Shown here: piece after piece, positions 20,601 through 32,074 of the stretch
Numbering within the stretch: position 1 is the first letter of the stretch
Layout of the letters: every line of letters starts with the position of its first letter
Assembly: GCA_018062825.1 (NCBI GenBank)
Contig: JAGORL010000001.1
Location: 47,137-111,136, forward strand
Length of the DNA stretch: 64,000 nucleotides
Direction: 5' to 3'
Source of the DNA: Patescibacteria group bacterium
GTDB taxonomy: Bacteria; Patescibacteriota; Patescibacteriia; UBA9934
Notes under the pieces: generated by a model
What the model saw: the letters and a program-made list of their open reading frames with translations, nothing else
What the model was told of the DNA's origin: nothing
Database searches by the model: none
Program-made: the position numbers and the translations under genes

Positions 20601-20692
20601 AGCAATAAAATGACAGTAGTTGGAAGATTGACTTTTGTCACGTAAAATACTAGGATTATTAGTCCGCACCTGTGGACACCGGGAGATCAGAC

Positions 20693-21934
20693 ATGCTGGA
20701 AGGATTTCGTTCCTTGCTCGCCGACGAGTCGGCGGCCTACACCTGGCTCATGGAGCTTCACGAGGGAAGTCTCGCCACGATCGCGAAGGAGCGCGAGAAG
20801 ACCAACTGGGACAGCCTCACGCCTACCGAGCTTCTGCAGGAAGCTATGCAGGCGGTGGATCGCTGTGTGGCCGTTCTGCACCGCTGGGGCTTCGAGACCC
20901 ACTCCATGGACGCCGGCCACGGCATGGGCCACATCGTGCGTGACTACACGATGGCGCTCATCCTCGCGCCCTCCATGGAATGCTCGAACGTCGCGCGCTT
21001 CGCGGTCGTCCTCGCTGGCACCTTCCACGACATCGGCTGCGCCCTGCAGGGGCGCTACGAAGACGGCGAGCGCGCCGTTCGTCACGCCGAGGCCGGCGCG
21101 TACCTCATGCAGCTCGTGTTCACGGAAGCGGGTATCGACCCGCTCGTGAGCGAGCTCGCGGTCCTTGGGATCGTGGGTCACACCCACTACCCGCGGCCCA
21201 TGAAGGTCGTCTGCAAGGACGGCGTCGAGCGTGAGGTCAAGCCGTTCGTGGACCTGCACCCGGATGGGTCCCCCGTGATGTCGATCTGGGGACCCCGCTG
21301 GGTCGATCGCTGCGACCTGAACGGTCCGACCTTCATCGGTCGGCACGTGCTCACCCTCACGAACGTGCGGAAGGACTTCGATGGCGATGGCTTCTACGCC
21401 ATCGATCCCGCCGAGCACTTCCGTCCGATCATGCGCACCGCGGACGAGATCAAGGCCGCCGGTGGCGCCCGCACCATGCTCGAGCACATCGAGCTGTACC
21501 GTGGCAGCCAGTCGAACGCGTCCCTCTACGGCAAGTTCGACAGCCCCTTCATGCAGAGCATCCGCGACGAACGGGCGTCCTGCCTGAGCCACATCATGGC
21601 CGCGGTGCTCACCGGCGATGCGCCGCACGACATCGAAGCCACCCTCGTGCGCTTCGAGAGCTTCCTCGCCACGAACATCGAGCCAGATCCGGATCTCGGT
21701 CGACCGGCGGCAAGGAAGATCATGGCGGCCTTCCGTGAGCTCCCCGAACACACCAAGGAGCGTTGGGCAGCCGGGTTCGAGGCCACGATGGCCGAGTACC
21801 ACGTCTACCACGAGCAGATGATCGAGCTGCTCGCCGGAAGCAAGATCAGCCAGGGTCCAAGCGATGAGTTCCGGATCCTTGGCTACAGCGTGCTCTCGGT
21901 GCTCACCCCGCACCGTTCCTGGTCCGCGCGCTAG
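20693..21934 (+). CDS. HD-superfamily metal-dependent phosphohydrolase; compositionally foreign (~65% GC)
   Basis: Motifs H...GHGMGH ... FHDIG ... H ... D. Good SD sequence (GGGAG 8 nt upstream). GC3-rich codon usage, unlike neighbours. Antisense ORF 20687..21955 has GC-artefact composition. Confidence 0.6.
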   Translation: MLEGFRSLLADESAAYTWLMELHEGSLATIAKEREKTNWDSLTPTELLQEAMQAVDRCVAVLHRWGFETHSMDAGHGMGHIVRDYTMALILAPSMECSNVARFAVVLAGTFHDIGCALQGRYEDGERAVRHAEAGAYLMQLVFTEAGIDPLVSELAVLGIVGHTHYPRPMKVVCKDGVEREVKPFVDLHPDGSPVMSIWGPRWVDRCDLNGPTFIGRHVLTLTNVRKDFDGDGFYAIDPAEHFRPIMRTADEIKAAGGARTMLEHIELYRGSQSNASLYGKFDSPFMQSIRDERASCLSHIMAAVLTGDAPHDIEATLVRFESFLATNIEPDPDLGRPAARKIMAAFRELPEHTKERWAAGFEATMAEYHVYHEQMIELLAGSKISQGPSDEFRILGYSVLSVLTPHRSWSAR

Positions 21935-24617: not shown

Positions 24618-26969
24618 ATGTCGTACGATTTTGAAAAGATTGATGGAAAGTGGCAGGCAAGGTGGCTTGAAAATAAGGCCTTCGCTGCTAAAAATAATGA
24701 TCCCCGTGAGAAATACTACGTTCTCGTAGAGTTTCCTTTTCCTTCGGGCGCCGGTTTGCACGTTGGTCACGTGCGCAGCTATACGGCGCTTGATGCTGTC
24801 GCGCGCAAGAAACGCATGGACGGCAAGAATGTGCTGTTCCCAATGGGTTGGGATGCCTTTGGTTTGCCAGCTGAGAACTATGCTATTAAAACCGGTATTC
24901 ACCCCTCGGTGATTACTAAAGAAAATACCGATACCTTCCGCCGCCAATTACAAAGCATGGGTTTTAGCTTTGATTGGGACCGTGAGATTGATACGACCGA
25001 TCCGAAATACTACCGCTGGACACAGTGGATGTTCTTAGAGTTTTTCAAAGCAGGTTTGGCATATAAGGCCACCACCACCATCAATTGGTGCCCCAAAGAT
25101 AAGACCGGTCTCGCTAATGAGGAGGTTGTCGCTGGCGCATGTGAACGCTGCGGAACGCCTGTTGAGAAGCGCGAGAAAGAGCAGTGGATGCTCGCTATTA
25201 CCAAATACGCTGATCGTCTAATCGACGATTTAAAAACCGTCGATTACTTGCCGAAGATTAAAAAGCAGCAAGAAGACTGGATTGGTCGATCAGAAGGTGC
25301 AGAAATTAGCTTTGCCTTGAAATTTATTTTCAACAAAGAGGCTAATAATAATCGCGGTCCAAATGGCGAGGTTGCACAACTCCCGGTGTTTACCACGCGC
25401 CCAGATACTATTTTCGGTGTAACCTATATAGTCATTGCCCCAGAACACCCGTGGGTCACCTTGGCGCTCGATAGCAATCACGAAGTTCTTGAAAATAAGG
25501 CTGAGGTTACAGCGTATGTCGAGGACGTAAAAAAGCGCACCGACATTGATCGCACCAATGACGATAAAGAGAAAACCGGTGTTGAGCTAAAAGGCATCAA
25601 AGCCATCAATCCAGCAACAGGTGAAGAAGTGCCTGTTTGGGTAGGGGATTACGTACTCCCACATTACGGCACTGGCGTTGTCATGGCTGTGCCACAGCAT
25701 GATGAACGCGATGCTGCCTTTGCCAAGAAGTACAACCTCCCTGTTCTTGATAAGCCGCTTGTTTCATTCGCTGAGGCTCTCAAGGCTACCGGCGGCAAGA
25801 AGCAGGTGAAATACAAGCTGCGCGATTGGGTCTTTTCACGCCAGCGATATTGGGGCGAACCTATTCCACTTATTCACTGTGAAAAAGATGGTTGGGTGGC
25901 GGTTCCGGAGGATCAATTGCCAGTAACCTTGCCGCAAGTAGAAAAGTACGAACCAACCGATAACGGTGAGTCTCCGCTTTCCGCTATTGATAGCTTTGTA
26001 AATACTACCTGCCCAACCTGTAACGGTCCTGCCAAGCGCGAAACCGACACCATGCCAAATTGGGCGGGTTCAAGCTGGTATTTCTTGCGTTATATTGATC
26101 CAAACAACGATCAAGCCTTTGCTTCCAAGGAGAATCTGAAGTATTGGATGCCGGTTGATCTGTATAACGGCGGCATGGAGCACACGACACTCCACCTTCT
26201 ATACTCCCGTTTTTGGAATAAGGTACTTTTTGATCGCGGTCACGTACCGGTAAGTGAGCCCTATCACCGCCGCCACAGTCATGGGCTCATTTTGGCTGAA
26301 GATGGCTCAAAGATGTCCAAGTCAAAAGGCAACGTCGTCAACCCGGATGAAATCGTGTACAAGCACGGTGCTGATACTTTGCGTGTCTATGAGCTTTTCA
26401 TTGGCCCCTTTGAAGAGCCAGCGCCATGGAGCATGAATGGCGTCGCTGGCGTTAAGCGCTTCCTTGACCGCTCGCTTCGTCTTATTGAAAAAGTTGCAAG
26501 CGCTGAGCCGATCGAGGTTACCAAGGCTCTCCATAAAACCATCAAAAAAGTCGGATCAGATCTTGATGGCTTGCATTTCAACACCGCCGTGTCGCAACTC
26601 ATGATGTTTGTCAACGCCGCCACTGATGCCGGCGCCATCACCAAAGAATCGCTTGTGAAGTTCGCTCAGATTCTTTGTCCACTTGCTCCACACGTTGCTA
26701 ATGAAATCGCTGAGCGCCTTGGAGAGTCTCAGATCGCGCAAGGGCAGCAGTGGCCAATTGTTGATGAATCGCTACTTATCGAGGATGTTATTACTATCTC
26801 TATTCAGGTAAATGGCAAGTTGCGTGGCACGGTTTCTGTGGCTCCTGCCATTGAGAAGGAAGCTTTAATCGCCTTGGCGCAAGCCGAAGAAGGAGTTGCA
26901 AAGTTCATTACAGGTGAGCCAAAGAAGGTCATTGTTGTTCCAGGTAAAATTGTTAATTTCGTGGTGTAG
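24618..26969 (+). CDS. leuS: leucine--tRNA ligase
   Basis: HVGHVRSY (HIGH), KMSKSKGN (KMSKS), 783 aa. Confidence 0.95.
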   Translation: MSYDFEKIDGKWQARWLENKAFAAKNNDPREKYYVLVEFPFPSGAGLHVGHVRSYTALDAVARKKRMDGKNVLFPMGWDAFGLPAENYAIKTGIHPSVITKENTDTFRRQLQSMGFSFDWDREIDTTDPKYYRWTQWMFLEFFKAGLAYKATTTINWCPKDKTGLANEEVVAGACERCGTPVEKREKEQWMLAITKYADRLIDDLKTVDYLPKIKKQQEDWIGRSEGAEISFALKFIFNKEANNNRGPNGEVAQLPVFTTRPDTIFGVTYIVIAPEHPWVTLALDSNHEVLENKAEVTAYVEDVKKRTDIDRTNDDKEKTGVELKGIKAINPATGEEVPVWVGDYVLPHYGTGVVMAVPQHDERDAAFAKKYNLPVLDKPLVSFAEALKATGGKKQVKYKLRDWVFSRQRYWGEPIPLIHCEKDGWVAVPEDQLPVTLPQVEKYEPTDNGESPLSAIDSFVNTTCPTCNGPAKRETDTMPNWAGSSWYFLRYIDPNNDQAFASKENLKYWMPVDLYNGGMEHTTLHLLYSRFWNKVLFDRGHVPVSEPYHRRHSHGLILAEDGSKMSKSKGNVVNPDEIVYKHGADTLRVYELFIGPFEEPAPWSMNGVAGVKRFLDRSLRLIEKVASAEPIEVTKALHKTIKKVGSDLDGLHFNTAVSQLMMFVNAATDAGAITKESLVKFAQILCPLAPHVANEIAERLGESQIAQGQQWPIVDESLLIEDVITISIQVNGKLRGTVSVAPAIEKEALIALAQAEEGVAKFITGEPKKVIVVPGKIVNFVV

Positions 26970-26970
26970 T

Positions 26971-28437
26971 GTGAGAAAAGTGGAGGAAGCGATCCCGCCG
27001 TCATACGTGCTTTCCGCACTGTGCGGCGGTTTTGTTATTGGTGTTATCGCTTGTTCGTTCATTGTTTCCTGGTGGTTGCCGCTCGCGTGTGCTCTGGGTG
27101 CTTTCTTTGGAGCCAGATATCTTTTTGGCATTAATAAGAGTACGTGGCGTCTGATTGTGTTTGGGGCTTTTATGCTCGGAGCTGCTTTGTCATGGGGAAG
27201 GTATGCCGCCATGACGCCCGATAGTCAGAGCGTGGCTGGCGTACTCGGCGATAAAGAGGTGGAGGGGCAAGTGGTAGCGATCCAGATCACTGATTCCGGG
27301 CAGCGTTTAACCCTGAACAATCTTCGTGTTCAAGGTAGTGGGGTAAATGATCGGGTACTACTCACGGTTCCTAGGCTCCCGCTGTATCGCATCGGCGACG
27401 TAGTACGAACCGCGTGCAGCCTCAAGGCTCCGGAGCCATTTGATGACTTTCGTTACGATCATTACCTAGCCGCCAAAGACATATACGCCACCTGTAAAAC
27501 GTATCAGTCGCCACTTATTGTCGAACATAGAGTCACGCCGCGCTCATTAATTGCAGACCTGCATGACGCTTCATTGCGCGCCATTGAACGCACCGCGCTT
27601 CCTCCTCATGATGCGTTACTTGCCGGTCTTCTTTTTGGCGATGCTCGCTTTTCAGAGGCTTGGGATGAGCGCTTTTTACGAACCGGTACAACCCACGTTG
27701 TAGCCGCCTCGGGATACAACGTTACGCTCCTAGTATCACTCCTGGGCGGACTCGCTGTTGCCTGCGGAATTCGTCGCCGTTCCGCGATACCGGCACTGAT
27801 CATCGGTGTTATCTGTTTCGTCTTTTTCGCAGGGGCCGGAGCAGCGGTAACACGTGCCGGCATGATGGCTTCAATCGCACTTGTCGCTACCTACGTCGGT
27901 CGACCAAGCGGTGCTCCAAGGGCGCTCTTTTATGCCGTGTGCGTCATGCTCGCCATTAACCCACTTCTCTTGCGTGACGACATCGGGTTTCAGCTCTCAG
28001 TAACCTCAACAATGGGGTTGCTGCTTTTCGCGTCTCCTCTTGGGAAAAGGCTCATATTCATTCCAGAGACTTTCGGTATCCGCGAGTCAGTCGCCTCAAC
28101 GTTCGCAGCTAGTTTTACCACGCTCCCGGTACTACTTGCCGCCGGTAGTGGCATCTCCGTAACGTCGTTTCTGACTAACTTTTTCATCCTGCCATTTGTG
28201 CCATATGCCATGGGATTTGGAGCGCTCGCAGCTGTCGTCGGCATTGTGTCAGAAAGTCTTGGTCGATTGGTTGGTCTTGGAGCAGTTGGCTGCACTGCCT
28301 GGATGCTGTTTGTGATTCGTTCCTTTGCACAGTTTGGCGATGCGCTTGTGGCGCCACCTGGAGTGAAGGAGTTGCTCATACTCGCGTCTCTACTTGCGAT
28401 TATGTACGCGGTACATAGAACACGTTCATATGAATAA
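26971..28437 (+). CDS. comEC: ComEC/Rec2 competence protein, membrane channel portion (GTG start)
   Basis: DUF4131-like N-terminus followed by a polytopic competence domain. In-frame GTG at 26971 lies just after the leuS stop. Confidence 0.65.
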   Translation: MRKVEEAIPPSYVLSALCGGFVIGVIACSFIVSWWLPLACALGAFFGARYLFGINKSTWRLIVFGAFMLGAALSWGRYAAMTPDSQSVAGVLGDKEVEGQVVAIQITDSGQRLTLNNLRVQGSGVNDRVLLTVPRLPLYRIGDVVRTACSLKAPEPFDDFRYDHYLAAKDIYATCKTYQSPLIVEHRVTPRSLIADLHDASLRAIERTALPPHDALLAGLLFGDARFSEAWDERFLRTGTTHVVAASGYNVTLLVSLLGGLAVACGIRRRSAIPALIIGVICFVFFAGAGAAVTRAGMMASIALVATYVGRPSGAPRALFYAVCVMLAINPLLLRDDIGFQLSVTSTMGLLLFASPLGKRLIFIPETFGIRESVASTFAASFTTLPVLLAAGSGISVTSFLTNFFILPFVPYAMGFGALAAVVGIVSESLGRLVGLGAVGCTAWMLFVIRSFAQFGDALVAPPGVKELLILASLLAIMYAVHRTRSYE

Positions 28438-29272
28438 ACGACCGATAGCAATCACGCTTGGCATTGCAGTACTTTGCGCTCTTACGCTCATGCCAAAGTT
28501 ACCACGCCAATGTGAGGCGATAGTCTGCGTCTGGGTATTTGATATCGGGCAGGGCGATGCCATCTATATCGATGGCCAGGATTACGATCTTGTCATTGAT
28601 GGTGGACCAACGGATATGGTCGTCGAAAAAATCGGTGCCATCCTCTATCCGTGGGACACCTCTATCGATGCTACCCTCATGACGCACCCGGATGCGGATC
28701 ATATGAACGGCCTCGCGCATCTACTGGGTCGGTATCGAATACTAAATGTGTTCGACTCACTTCAGGCCGGTTCATCTGCCGAGTACGCCGCCTATGAAGA
28801 ATTATCCGGGCCAAGAAGGCAAGGGCTACATGCGGGCGATAGGCTAGAGCTTGGCGGGGGAGCGTATCTTGAGATTGTATACCCGGAGCAAACCTTTGAT
28901 CGAAATAAACTCAGCGATCCAAACGGCGCCTCGATTATCGCCATACTTCATGTTGGGGATCAGGCTATGCTGTTGACGGGCGATGCTGGAGTCGAGCAAG
29001 AGCGAGAGATAGTAAACAGCTTACCGGACATCGATGTATTAAAAGTGGGTCATCACGGGAGTCGTACTTCAACAAGTGCCGAGCTTTTAGAGGCAGCAAA
29101 GCCAGAGATCGCAATCATTCCGGCGGGCAAAGATAATGATTACGGTCATCCGCACCCGGACGTCGTTGATCGTCTGCTTGAATACGGCGTCACCGTGTAT
29201 CAAACCAATCTTCATGGTGATATTCGGATAGACTTTGGTCAAGAAATAACGGTAAAACGTTTTTCACTATAA
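28430..29272 (+). CDS. comEC: ComEC C-terminal metallo-beta-lactamase domain, separate ORF in +1 frame
   Basis: DGGPTDMVVEKIG...HPDADHMNGL...GDAG...VGHHGS. Overlaps upstream ORF by about 8 nt in a different frame. Confidence 0.65.
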   Translation: MNKRPIAITLGIAVLCALTLMPKLPRQCEAIVCVWVFDIGQGDAIYIDGQDYDLVIDGGPTDMVVEKIGAILYPWDTSIDATLMTHPDADHMNGLAHLLGRYRILNVFDSLQAGSSAEYAAYEELSGPRRQGLHAGDRLELGGGAYLEIVYPEQTFDRNKLSDPNGASIIAILHVGDQAMLLTGDAGVEQEREIVNSLPDIDVLKVGHHGSRTSTSAELLEAAKPEIAIIPAGKDNDYGHPHPDVVDRLLEYGVTVYQTNLHGDIRIDFGQEITVKRFSL

Positions 29273-29276
29273 AAAA

Positions 29277-29312
29277 GAAGGCCCGCACCAGAGGGGATCT
29301 GGTGCGGGGAGA
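29277..29312 (-). terminator. GC-rich terminator for the minus-strand NTase gene
   Basis: Minus strand: cccgcaccagatcccctctggtgcggg followed by ccttctttttt. Confidence 0.5.
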
Positions 29313-29317
29313 ATTGC

Positions 29318-30169
29318 CTAAGGCACAGCAACAAGCAGGCGGTGCAGGAGCGTGGTCGCAAGAACGGCGCTGTCGCCAAGCTTGTCCACCGCGCGTTGGT
29401 ACCCTTCGGCGTTGTACGAGCGCAGCTGTTCGCTAAGCTCGTCGTTGTACGCCTGATTCACTGCGCGCAGCTGCCTGAGGCCAGCTACGAGGTCTTCGTC
29501 GAAGATGAGTGGGTGCGCCTCGGCACGCGCGATGATCTCATCGTAGTGCACGAGCATCGGACACGGCTCTCCCAGGCATTGAAGTACGTTGCGGACTCCG
29601 TGAAACGGGGCCTTGGTGGCATCGGTCAGAAGGTCGGCGCTCTCCTGGCGCCGCAGCGCTCGTTGGCGAGACAGTGCATCCTCCATGGCCTGATGCTTGT
29701 ACGTCAGGTAGGAGAGTGCCACCGCGCGCGGCTTGTGCCGACCGTTGAACTTGAAGTAGCGGGTCGGTTCAGGCGTGCGTGAGGCAAGTCCAATCGCAGC
29801 GCACGCGTGCAGGTGAGAGGCGAACCCTTCACCGATCGCGTGCTTGGCGCTACGTGCCAGGAAAAGGTCGCACCAGATGGTGGAGACCTTCACGTGATAG
29901 TGTGCCAAGTTCGCGAGGAACTCATCGACTTGCTGCGCTCGACGCCGCGTCTCGCGCGGATCAAGCGTCGTGCTCTCGTACAGGATGAACACATCAAGGT
30001 CAGACCGCGGCCCGTGTAGGCCCGCGGCATACGAGCCGCAAATGACGGCGTTCACCACCCAGGGCTGCTCTTTGAGCCAGGTCAGAAGGGTTGTCGCAAC
30101 TACGGTGAAGTTCTCGTGAGTAGGAACCTTCTTCAGACGTACGTCGGCGGCCAAGTAAACGCGTCCCAC
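29318..30169 (-). CDS. Pol-beta superfamily nucleotidyltransferase, AadA/ANT(3'')(9)-like; compositionally foreign (~62% GC)
   Basis: VICGSYAAGLHGPRSDLDVFILY has the same GS-x10-DxD spacing as AadA (LYGSAVDGGLKPHSDIDLLV), plus LDPRETRRRA and a helical C-terminal domain. GTG start with AGGAGG SD. Confidence 0.55.
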   Translation of the reverse strand: MGRVYLAADVRLKKVPTHENFTVVATTLLTWLKEQPWVVNAVICGSYAAGLHGPRSDLDVFILYESTTLDPRETRRRAQQVDEFLANLAHYHVKVSTIWCDLFLARSAKHAIGEGFASHLHACAAIGLASRTPEPTRYFKFNGRHKPRAVALSYLTYKHQAMEDALSRQRALRRQESADLLTDATKAPFHGVRNVLQCLGEPCPMLVHYDEIIARAEAHPLIFDEDLVAGLRQLRAVNQAYNDELSEQLRSYNAEGYQRAVDKLGDSAVLATTLLHRLLVAVP

Positions 30170-30282
30170 GCCCGCCTCCTATGAAAGAGCTAGCGCTAAG
30201 GTAACAGGCCGGTGCCTGTTGTGCAATATATTGACTACTAGGGTATTTTTGTTACACTTTCGCCAAATTATTTTTTCTATCT

Positions 30283-30750
30283 ATGGCCGATATCCAGCGA
30301 ACACTTGTTCTTATTAAGCCAGATGCCGTACAGCGCGAGCTCGTTGGTGAGGTCGTGACTCGCTTTGAGCGCAAAGGCTTGAAGATGATCGCCATGAAGC
30401 TTACGCACCTTGATGAAGCAACCCTCACCGAGCACTACGGACATTTGAAGGATAAGGCGTTCTTTCCAAGTCTTGTGCAGTTCATGATGCAGACCCCGGT
30501 GGTTGCTCTTGTGCTTGAAGGTCTTGATGTCATTGAATCCGTACGTAAGGTAGTTGGCGCCACGAACCCTCGTGCTGCTGACGCTGGTACCATCCGTGCC
30601 GATCTTTCCATGAATGTACCGTCAAACATGGTGCACGCCTCAGATTCTGTCGAGGCTGCTACTACGGAAATCACTCGTTTCTTTAAGCCAGAGGAGCTTA
30701 TGCAGTACGAAAAGATGACCGACAAGTTCCATTTTGGCGAGGGAATCTAA
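30283..30750 (+). CDS. ndk: nucleoside-diphosphate kinase
   Basis: TLVLIKPDAVQR...NMVHASDS (catalytic His region). Native GC. Confidence 0.9.
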   Translation: MADIQRTLVLIKPDAVQRELVGEVVTRFERKGLKMIAMKLTHLDEATLTEHYGHLKDKAFFPSLVQFMMQTPVVALVLEGLDVIESVRKVVGATNPRAADAGTIRADLSMNVPSNMVHASDSVEAATTEITRFFKPEELMQYEKMTDKFHFGEGI

Positions 30751-30847: not shown

Positions 30848-32074
30848 ATGGTCCACTTCATCGACGATTCGTCGAGTGATGCTTGGTTCGCTTCGATCAA
30901 AGAGCATCCAACGCTCGGTCGTGAATACAGGCTGATGATGCAGCTGCTGGAGGTTCTGCTCCCCACTTCCTCCAACAAGCATGGGCGCCGCTCCCGATTC
31001 GGGATGGCATACCAGGAGGTTTACGGGCCAAGTGAGTACGCGGCAGAGGTCATTCACCGCCGGTTCAAGCAGTGCGCTGCTCGTATCCGCACGGAAGATG
31101 AGCGGATCGTGAAGGAGTTCTTCTACCCGTATGAGGCGGATCTGCATGCGGAAAGTCGCGTGCGCAACACCTACGATCCCGAGTCGCTTCTCGGCTACTG
31201 CAATCTCGGTGCAAGCGACGGCCTGATTGACATGCAGGCACGCGTGGAAGCTGTGGCACGCTTCATCACCTCGCGCCTCTTGCTGTACGCCGATCTTCAC
31301 GAGAGTGAGGTTGACGTCGGCGAGCAAGAAGGGGTAATTCTCGCGCAACTGCTCCCGCGGTTGTTCGTGCAAGAGTGTTCCCTCGAGACCTTCCTGGATC
31401 TGTCTCTTGATCGTCGCGCCAAGTGGCGCATCAAGGACTGGTCGATCGACGGTCGTCGGCTCGACGGCCGCATCCGCCTGCAGGAGCGCTTCCTGTGCCG
31501 AGCCTTCGAGATCGATGGCGTCAATCACCCCGTCTACATCGAGGATCGCGTGAAATCCGATTTCAGCAGCATCCTCAAGATGCTGAGGAAGAATCAAGAC
31601 ATGGGCAAGGAGAACGATAAGCGCGGCGTGCGCATGATCGTTTTCTCCCAGAAGGCCTTCAACGAGTTCGTGAAGGCGCTGCGTTCAGAGCTCTCTCGTG
31701 GCCGCTTTCAGGTCATCGAAGAGAGTGAGAATATCTCCACGGCTGGGAAGGTGGACAGCAATAACCCGGTGAGTAAGGAGGACTTCCGCGTACATCGCTT
31801 CGTGGCTGAGTACGCCGACCCGGGCCACAGCAAGTACCGCGTGGAGGTGAACGTTCAGTTCGTCGACGACTACCTCAACGACCGTTGGTCGCTTTCGCCG
31901 GCTCGGCACGAGCTCTATCGGTTTGAGCAACTGCAGCGCTACTTCTGCCCGTTCCGATACCCGCGCTTCATCCACGGCATCGACTGGACACCCGGTTCGC
32001 AGTTCGATCAGCGCATGCGAACCTTCATGGACTACCGACGTCGCGCCAAGGTCCTGGCTCGGTCCGCTCGCTAG
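30848..32074 (+). CDS. RelA/SpoT-family (alarmone synthetase fold) nucleotidyltransferase with ~230-aa N-terminal domain of unknown function; compositionally foreign (~60% GC)
   Basis: RVKSDFSSILKMLRK matches RxKxxxSxxxK (compare RelQ RVKPVASILEKARRK). DKRGVRMIVF matches DxxGxRI. VEVNVQF...ARHELYRFE is an EIQIRT...H..YKY analogue. GGGAGG SD. Confidence 0.55.
   Translation: MVHFIDDSSSDAWFASIKEHPTLGREYRLMMQLLEVLLPTSSNKHGRRSRFGMAYQEVYGPSEYAAEVIHRRFKQCAARIRTEDERIVKEFFYPYEADLHAESRVRNTYDPESLLGYCNLGASDGLIDMQARVEAVARFITSRLLLYADLHESEVDVGEQEGVILAQLLPRLFVQECSLETFLDLSLDRRAKWRIKDWSIDGRRLDGRIRLQERFLCRAFEIDGVNHPVYIEDRVKSDFSSILKMLRKNQDMGKENDKRGVRMIVFSQKAFNEFVKALRSELSRGRFQVIEESENISTAGKVDSNNPVSKEDFRVHRFVAEYADPGHSKYRVEVNVQFVDDYLNDRWSLSPARHELYRFEQLQRYFCPFRYPRFIHGIDWTPGSQFDQRMRTFMDYRRRAKVLARSAR

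Follow-up and report, generated by a model that had tools for sequence, protein, structure and literature searches.

In a 64,000-nucleotide stretch of the Patescibacteria contig JAGORL010000001.1 (hereafter the window), the open reading frame (ORF) rich in guanine plus cytosine (GC) that separates comEC from ndk is a real gene, and it codes for a nucleotidyltransferase (NTase). Our data indicate that its product is probably a catalytically competent, stand-alone enzyme of two domains and a divergent member of an uncharacterised Patescibacteria family of proteins of about 275 amino acids (aa). By its sequence the protein belongs to the Pol-beta-like nucleotidyltransferase superfamily, and motif and predicted fold suggest that it is very probably active. 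It is not a member of the AadA/ANT family of aminoglycoside nucleotidyltransferases (ANT), and a role in aminoglycoside resistance is unlikely. Patescibacteria have tiny genomes in which a large share of genes has no assigned function.

The gene is considered real because a copy with 71% amino-acid identity is present in a syntenic contig, L001, with a ratio of nonsynonymous to synonymous substitution (dN/dS) of about 0.21. A preliminary description of this DNA had read a GC-rich (~62%) minus-strand gene with a GTG start, an AGGAGG Shine-Dalgarno sequence and a terminator of its own, located between a split comEC and ndk, divergent from ndk, and coding for a Pol-beta NTase with a GS-x10-DxD core. 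These readings hold. The GC content is 0.617, all of the elements can be read in the sequence, the position agrees with the ORF list and Pfam, G45-S46 and D57-L-D59 are separated by ten residues, and the Pfam model NTP_transf_2 (PF01909) matches residues 34-97 with 34.4 bits against a cutoff of 21 (E 3e-8). The close parallel with AadA that was also drawn is not supported as a specific relationship, since the parallel in the motif is the generic core of the superfamily, the ANT and DUF4111 models fail and the tryptophan determinants of AadA are absent.

Domain architecture and family membership

An exhaustive HMMER search recovered 176 cluster representatives at E<=1e-3 (E down to 2.6e-17), nearly all of them 270-280 aa long and aligned end to end, with matches that span query residues 1 to ~270; a word-index homologue search returned only an identical protein and the 71% copy. 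The sequences in an alignment of 140 family members (A2) are 20-26% identical to the window protein; over all members, its own copies in L001 and L002 excepted, the range is 20-29%. G45 is invariant in A2, S46, S56, D57 and D59 are conserved in at least 98% of the sequences, and M1, P16, H110, H119, Y154, P188, R193, Y241 and Y257 in at least 90%. The window protein keeps every near-invariant residue of the family, from M1, G2 and P16 to Y257, and thus belongs to it. NTP_transf_2 is also matched by 114 of the 140 relatives. The N-terminal Pol-beta-type domain includes the family-conserved segment MGRVY...P16...F21, and the catalytic motif in its context, ICG45S46-x10-D57LD59VF, fits the superfamily pattern hG[GS]-x9-13-Dh[DE]h. 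The helical C-terminal domain carries the family-conserved residues H110, H119, Y154, K158, P188, H190, R193, Y241 and Y257, and had no match in Pfam or NCBIfam, either in the window protein or in the 140 relatives.

An AlphaFold model built on the deep family alignment reached a predicted local distance difference test score (pLDDT) of 96 and a predicted template modelling score of 0.90; a run on two sequences alone (pLDDT 55.7) was discarded. In the model, the N-terminal domain runs through helix 18-33, strand 38-44, strand 58-64, helix 71-86 and strand 95-101, and the C-terminal domain is made of six helices (114-125, 147-167, 174-198, 209-217, 225-250 and 254-281). The alpha-beta-alpha-beta-alpha-beta NTase core, with a third acidic residue on a later strand, is present in the model. 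All fold matches found with Foldseek were NTases. Against the Protein Data Bank (PDB), the top matches were ANT(9) (6xz0), AadA (5lpa, 5g4a and 6fzb) and ANT(4') (6un8), aligned over ~290 columns, the full length, with a probability of ~1, and the next were HalB, the GlnE N-terminal domain, a minimal nucleotidyltransferase (MNT), LinB and CdnC. A phmmer search of the PDB with the single window sequence gave only chance matches to ketol-acid reductoisomerase.

The named sources of family members are metagenome-assembled genomes (MAGs) of Patescibacteria or Paceibacterota and the rest are metagenome contigs, and the family appears to be confined to Patescibacteria; MFA5945906.1 and HET9641709.1 are examples. 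A search with a 15-sequence subset of A2 recovered 42 further family loci from metagenomes. In these loci gene GC follows contig GC (0.37-0.64), with a mean excess of +3 points versus +11 for the window gene, and neither ndk nor ComEC was found near it. No recurrent partner gene was found in 22 non-redundant family loci, which are flanked by housekeeping genes of various kinds (translation GTPases, aminoacyl-tRNA synthetases, TGT, MreB, Pth, RRF and DnaG). A functional link of the NTase to ndk or ComEC was considered and rejected, both genes being absent from 33 other family loci. No relatives were found in plasmid (PLSDB), phage and IMG/VR collections, nor in a scan of GTDB genomes with a two-sequence alignment, the broad family profile not having been run on GTDB.

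We infer the catalytic activity, the reaction and the substrate class from the motif, the predicted fold and the conservation. In the mechanism that we propose, a nucleoside triphosphate (NTP, probably ATP) and two Mg2+ ions would bind in the cleft between the Pol-beta-type and helical domains, where the nearest solved relatives also bind NTP. Contacts from the N-terminal domain would be made by G45-S46, S56, D57, D59 and D101, the last being a putative third carboxylate by analogy with E87 of AadA (PMC6065190), and those from the C-terminal domain by the conserved basic and aromatic residues R193, K158, Y241, Y257, H110 and H119. A nucleoside monophosphate (probably AMP) would then be transferred to an acceptor hydroxyl held by the helical domain, and pyrophosphate would be released, in the geometry of enzymes of the ANT type and of kanamycin nucleotidyltransferase (KNTase).

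Several observations weigh against an active enzyme of this kind. The window protein has lost the family motifs GGxIK (GLASRT in its sequence), DDSK (LVHY) and ARK (VRN), so that it could depart from the family in specificity or even in activity. D101 corresponds to a consensus aspartate in only 63% of A2. The ANT-type fold matches are weak (E >= 1e-3, root-mean-square deviation 7.6-10 Å, identity 10-15%) and stand in a mixed list with other NTases, and the equivalence of the C-terminal residues with those of AadA is an analogy that serves as a lead. The family itself is uncharacterised, and its members are named in databases as 'hypothetical protein', 'predicted nucleotidyltransferase' or 'nucleotidyltransferase domain-containing protein'.

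With respect to the acceptor, a polycationic aminoglycoside is most likely not the substrate, and as the most plausible guess we take a small molecule of another kind or the side chain of a protein. Divided more finely, a small molecule that is not an aminoglycoside is our tentative first choice, and a protein side chain, as in MntA or GlnE, is a less likely one. A nucleic acid acceptor and the synthesis of a signal for defence are both improbable, and an aminoglycoside is slightly more so; what is left falls to an inactive protein or another activity. This finer division need not match exactly the weights given to the rival explanations below.

The gene and its junction in Uhrbacteria

The features of the gene and its surroundings are listed in Table 1. 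The GTG start is backed by homology, since family members share the N-terminus M-G-x-V-F, with M1 conserved in 95% and G2 in 85% of them, and the window protein starts as MGRVY. The terminator hairpin (29308->29282) has a stem of 11 bp with 8 G-C pairs and a loop of 5 nt, followed by the T-run; it lies directly 3' of the NTase stop codon and borders on that of the ComEC-MBL ORF (MBL, metallo-beta-lactamase), which is convergent with the NTase gene. GC at third codon positions (GC3) is 0.735. Mean values over all 65 window ORFs are 0.510 for GC (sd 0.033) and 0.499 for GC3 (sd 0.065), and the NTase gene ranks second among them in GC (robust z = 4.7). The palindrome in the NTase leader is partly kept in L001 and absent in the other loci compared; it could be an operator, an insulator or simply chance. 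No Rfam families were found in the NTase region, and no direct repeats or mobile-element genes were found flanking the insert.

Table 1. Positions of the NTase gene, its signals and neighbouring genes in the window
Feature	Position	Strand	Basis
NTase coding sequence (283 aa)	29318..30169	-	ORF list; GTG start 30169-30167, stop codon 29318-29320
N-terminal Pol-beta-type NTase domain, residues ~1-106	29852..30169	-	model secondary structure; Pfam match; conservation
Catalytic motif G45-S46-x10-D57-x-D59, predicted NTP and Mg2+ binding	29993..30037	-	conservation; aligns with AadA1 GS...DxD (hhalign)
D101, putative third metal-binding/catalytic carboxylate	29867..29869	-	end of predicted strand 95-101
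C-terminal all-helical domain, residues ~107-283	29321..29851	-	predicted helices; conservation
Shine-Dalgarno sequence AGGAGG	30175..30180	-	5 bases 5' of GTG start; read from sequence
Intrinsic-terminator-like hairpin and T-run	29272..29308	-	terminator scan; sequence
Promoter-like match for NTase	30296->30267	-	promoter scan (consensus hit only)
Divergent spacer NTase/ndk, 113 bp	30170..30282	.	promoter scan; sequence
7-bp-stem perfect palindrome AACAGGC-ACCG-GCCTGTT	30203-30220	.	between NTase Shine-Dalgarno sequence and ndk promoter, in NTase leader/promoter region
ndk promoter TTGACT-16-TACACT	30231-30258	+	promoter scan; conserved in six loci
ndk	30283-30750	+	ORF list; divergent from NTase across 113-bp spacer
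ComEC-MBL ORF (MBL, part of split ComEC)	28394-29272	+	ORF list; Pfam
ComEC, both ORFs (DUF4131 and Competence, then MBL)	26896-29272	+	
408-aa ORF, just 3' of ndk	30848-32074	+	
420-aa protein with HD phosphohydrolase domain	20672-21934	+	

Judged from relatives of ndk, the host is Candidatus Uhrbacteria (Patescibacteria). The gene order of leucyl-tRNA synthetase (LeuRS), ComEC, MBL, ndk, a variable segment and MurA is conserved over ~33 loci. Of the 31 species-level GTDB loci in which both MBL and ndk are visible, 22 have an empty junction, with 114 bp or less from the MBL stop to the ndk start. In genomes free of the NTase the conserved ndk promoter directly follows MBL, and the NTase is therefore extra DNA between the MBL stop and the ndk promoter. 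This promoter (TTGACn, 16-17 nt, TAnACT, then GCAAAT...ATGGC) is conserved with or without an upstream insert in L001, L014, L091, L089 and L003-L015.

In at least seven Uhrbacteria lineages this junction holds an NTase of the family, oriented as in the window. The copies are in L001 (71% identical, full synteny), L002 (99% identical), L014 (= P0017, a GTDB MAG), L091 (= P0088), L089/L090 (= P0008), L093 (= P0054) and L092 (= P0065), and beyond L001 and L002 they are about 25-29% identical to the window protein. In L014 and L089-L091, where the NTase is at this level, ndk is 77-91% identical. Each junction copy is richer in GC than its own flanks by 5-12 points. L092 has two NTase-family genes in tandem (6-743 and 1039-1881) adjoining the ComEC-MBL gene, which indicates a local duplication in one lineage. 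Our data thus fit a GC-rich, fast-evolving branch of the family that would serve in Uhrbacteria as an accessory gene between ComEC-MBL and the ndk promoter, in some lineages only.

The NTase has diverged faster than its neighbours. Between the window and L001, amino-acid identity is ~95% for LeuRS, ndk and MurA, 81% for ComEC, 80% for the 408-aa ORF and 76% for MBL. The dN/dS of the NTase is 0.21 (0.14-0.34 across thirds of the gene) and that of MBL 0.09, of the 408-aa ORF 0.08, of ndk 0.03 and of LeuRS 0.02; these ratios, calculated by the Nei-Gojobori method, are rough since dS is near saturation. The NTase gene is clearly constrained by purifying selection, yet it evolves faster than its neighbours, and it is a functional, fast-evolving accessory gene.

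The preliminary description had called the gene part of a foreign cassette. Its composition is atypical and the junction is empty in most loci, which agrees with that view as far as a variable insert is concerned, but the term must be qualified, as at least seven Uhrbacteria lineages share the junction and no outside donor is identifiable. Recent import from outside is disfavoured by these seven lineages, by the apparent confinement of the family to Patescibacteria, by the lack of an identifiable donor and by a dS against L001 that is similar to that of the flanking genes. No donor can be identified because every relative besides the L001 and L002 copies is at most 29% identical. In a neighbour-joining tree the window gene is sister to P0008, P0011, P0017, P0054, P0065 and P0088, with only 13-20% support in a second distance method with 100 bootstraps; the orthology of the junction copies is therefore drawn from position and not from the tree. 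The trees would fit either ancestral presence with repeated loss or exchange among Uhrbacteria. The GC excess of the 408-aa gene in ~18 Uhrbacteria loci tracks the GC of the host, which suggests that a like excess comes from a bias tied to the gene or the site and not from recent import.

The 408-aa ORF of the window has a GC of 0.59 and a GC3 of 0.76. Its family comprises fast-evolving proteins of ~410-460 aa. About 18 of the 33 Uhrbacteria loci have a member in the ndk-murA interval, always richer in GC than the host genome. The sole annotation is a weak RelA_SpoT match (E 0.038, residues 234-281), and the family profile had no match in the PDB. Obligate pairing of the NTase with this gene was rejected, as the 408-aa gene is far more widespread. 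The 420-aa HD protein (Pfam 22.9 bits versus a cutoff of 22) is encoded by the most GC-rich gene of the window (0.66), with a syntenic L001 copy that is 78% identical and has a dN/dS of about 0.26. The NTase gene, the 408-aa ORF and the HD gene form a set of three GC-rich, fast-evolving orphans in a span of 12 kb. Two of the products, the HD protein and the NTase, have folds related to nucleotides, and the 408-aa ORF has only the weak RelA_SpoT hint.

Both flanks of ndk are variable sites. The gap between ndk and murA ranges from 86 bp to 6.5 kb. The MBL/ndk junction carries a 980-aa repeat-rich protein in L006 (4700-7642), a PaaX/Cas2-like protein of ~180 aa in L017 (7335-7892), L020 (2779-3321) and L023 (7334-7876), and an unknown 309-aa protein with a 241-aa ORF, glycosyltransferase-like by eye, in L018 (3936-5682). 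In L019 (4886-5533) a junction stretch of 645 bp has 62% GC in a genome of 45% GC and holds only a low-complexity frame of 188 aa; no similarity to the NTase family was detected in it. The junctions of L003, L007, L018, L019, L024 and L028, which are empty or odd, were searched for degraded NTase remnants, and none was found. ComEC is also divided into two ORFs in L001 (3843-5904) and L091 (5891-8165), which points to a layout conserved in Uhrbacteria and speaks against a pseudogene or a fault of assembly.

More speculatively, the junction NTases may be a rapidly diversifying module for conflict or for the modification of xenobiotics in these episymbiotic, naturally competent bacteria. Such a module would be exchanged by transformation and homologous recombination through the flanks, its GC3 excess, like that of the 408-aa and HD genes, would come from GC-biased conversion, and a new class of acceptor would be served by a helical domain that has no sequence relatives. 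We regard this combined scenario as improbable.

Alternatives for the reaction and its acceptor

A true ANT(3'')(9)-, ANT(9)- or ANT(4')-type enzyme that adenylylates aminoglycosides or aminocyclitols, conferring resistance to streptomycin, spectinomycin or kanamycin, would agree with the nearest solved structures and their full-length alignment, with the like two-domain size (283 versus ~260 aa) and GS-x10-DxD spacing, and with sub-threshold matches of at most 6 of the 140 relatives to ANT_9 and ANT(3'') models (best 7.7e-4). NCBIfam is the curated library that NCBI uses for naming proteins; its ANT models (ANT_9, ANT_3pp and PRK13746) gave no match to the window protein at E<=1, and none was passed by it or by any of the 140 relatives. 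DUF4111 and KNTase_C of Pfam had no match in the same set, and no Pfam match extends beyond residue 97. The model search proposed in the preliminary description was thus positive for NTP_transf_2 and negative for DUF4111 and the ANT models. Likeness at the level of profiles is limited to a core of ~50 residues. The A2 profile matched the PDB at positions ~20-85 only (2rff, MNT-type, E 2.6e-4; ANT(9), 3e-3; AadA, 0.57), the part matched to AadA and ANT(9) covering positions ~19-79, and hhalign against an approximate AadA1 sequence aligned 47 columns with a probability of 59%. Across Pfam, NCBIfam, PADLOC and PHROGs, the window protein and its family matched the generic core only (NTP_transf_2, Polbeta and sub-threshold MntA). 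A plasmid collection such as PLSDB is expected to hold many aadA genes, but tblastn of the NTase against 72,556 PLSDB plasmids found nothing. Aminoglycoside-modifying enzymes hold their cationic drugs in strongly acidic pockets. AadA1 has an isoelectric point (pI) of 4.6 and a net charge of -21, and the window protein has a pI of 8.25 and a net charge of +2, values that describe the whole protein and not the electrostatics of the pocket; the family median pI is 6.8 and the junction copies range from about 6.6 to 9.6. This basic charge is hard to reconcile with the binding of a polycationic aminoglycoside, and we consider a resistance enzyme very unlikely. The neutral to basic charge, up to pI about 9.5 in junction copies, would suit an enzyme that acts on nucleic acid, by 3'-end addition to RNA or tRNA or by modification of RNA or DNA, like poly(A) polymerases, CCA-adding enzymes and MenT-type enzymes, and there are weak MTPAP-like, poly(A) polymerase and archaeal CCA matches among models and structures. 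These are confined to the core and far below cutoff, no RNA-binding domain is recognisable, and by Foldseek the helical domain is nearer to that of ANT enzymes than to the 'fingers' of polymerases, so that this activity seems at least as improbable. The preliminary description had allowed for a better match to a housekeeping NTase such as a CCA-adding enzyme or GlnE, and none was found (cca_archaeal 13.7 bits versus a cutoff of 281.3; GlnE N-terminal domain E 1.6e-2 and TM score 0.40).

Nucleotidylylation of a protein, as by MntA or GlnE/GlnD, directed at a regulator or at the HEPN-like helical domain of the enzyme itself, is doubtful, although it carries more weight than the other rivals. MntA is a type VII antitoxin that AMPylates a HEPN toxin. 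The best NCBIfam match of the window protein is MntA_antitoxin (E 1.6e-4), which 75 of the 140 relatives match too, the fold matches include MNT structures and the N-terminal domain of GlnE, and the near-invariant Y154, Y241 and Y257 could be acceptor or phosphate-binding residues. However, the MntA match reaches 21.5 bits against a cutoff of 60 (NF047752) and covers only the core, no HEPN/HepT gene adjoins the NTase here, between ComEC-MBL and ndk, or in 22 other family loci, the window protein is twice the size of MntA, and the family consensus of the helical domain has no conserved Rx4-6H motif. An anti-phage or conflict sensor or synthase, similar to HalB or a CD-NTase, that makes a nucleotide signal and diversifies in an arms race would explain the fast evolution relative to ndk, LeuRS and MurA, the patchy presence at a junction that holds other cargo in other species, and the tandem gene pair in L092. 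The Foldseek list includes HalB and CdnC, and at most 6 of the 140 relatives have sub-threshold matches to HalB or CBASS models. On the other hand, PADLOC gave only weak, MNT-like candidate models (PDC-S09 and PDC-M05A; E >= 1.2e-3), and no effector or partner gene adjoins the NTase, whose flanks are ComEC-MBL and ndk. The 408-aa gene downstream occurs in about 18 loci, mostly without the NTase, most family members lie among housekeeping genes, the phage, plasmid and IMG/VR collections hold no relatives, and dN/dS is about 0.2, not above 1. A conflict function is thus about as unlikely as a resistance enzyme.

A stand-alone two-domain NTase of a Patescibacteria family is therefore the reading that we retain, and as it stands it describes an ordinary uncharacterised enzyme. 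The compact family now defined (at least 176 cluster representatives), with a confident model and a conserved set of residues, is tractable for biochemistry, and its description guards against annotation of the family as aminoglycoside resistance from the AadA-like fold. The ComEC/ndk and ndk/murA junctions are variable sites for fast-evolving, GC-enriched genes in Uhrbacteria and bear on the gain and loss of accessory genes in streamlined, naturally competent bacteria. If the acceptor is an antibiotic or a host-derived molecule, the enzyme would be informative on the symbiotic lifestyle.

Comparison with known nucleotidyltransferases

The residues required by AadA are known in detail. D47, D49 and E87 bind Mg2+, S36, S46, R192, K205 and Y231 contact the ATP phosphates, and the C-terminal domain thus contributes an Arg, a Lys and a Tyr to phosphate binding (PMC6065190). 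The N-terminal set has counterparts in S46, S56, D57, D59 and D101 of the window protein, and the conserved R193, K158 and Y241/Y257 are, by analogy, plausible counterparts of the AadA phosphate ligands. Activity of AadA on spectinomycin requires E87, W112, D182 and H/N185, W112 being in contact with spectinomycin or the C ring of streptomycin, and activity on streptomycin needs in addition W173 and an insertion at 177-178 (PMC6065190). The three tryptophans of the window protein (31, 37 and 99) all precede D101, and equivalents of W112 and W173 are therefore absent. Many AadA relatives that keep only the N-terminal ATP and Mg residues act on other substrates (PMC6065190), which also speaks against resistance.

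The window protein shares with ANT(9) and AadA (6xz0, 5lpa, 5g4a and 6fzb) the GS-x10-DxD Pol-beta domain with a third carboxylate, a comparably sized helical domain at the C-terminus and a two-domain length of ~260-280 aa. It differs from them in an identity of only 12-15%, in a C-terminal homology that is undetectable by sequence and in being basic where AadA is strongly acidic; in contrast to AadA, it also lacks a plasmid or integron location. The structural comparison with AadA proposed in the preliminary description accordingly gave ANT(9) and AadA among the nearest folds, but at weak TM scores of 0.43-0.48. With ANT(4') (1kny and 6un8) it shares an NTase domain joined to a helical, HEPN-like domain and a full-length structural alignment, but the TM score is 0.34-0.38, identity is 10-12% and KNTase_C does not match. 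The minimal MNT/MntA proteins (2rff, 8xeo and 7ae2; NF047752) give the best sequence-level matches to the NTase core. These proteins have ~100-140 aa and no helical domain, and their genes come paired with that of a HEPN toxin, whereas the window NTase has 283 aa and stands alone. The resemblance to AadA is real as architecture, and it is not evidence of membership in the AadA family.

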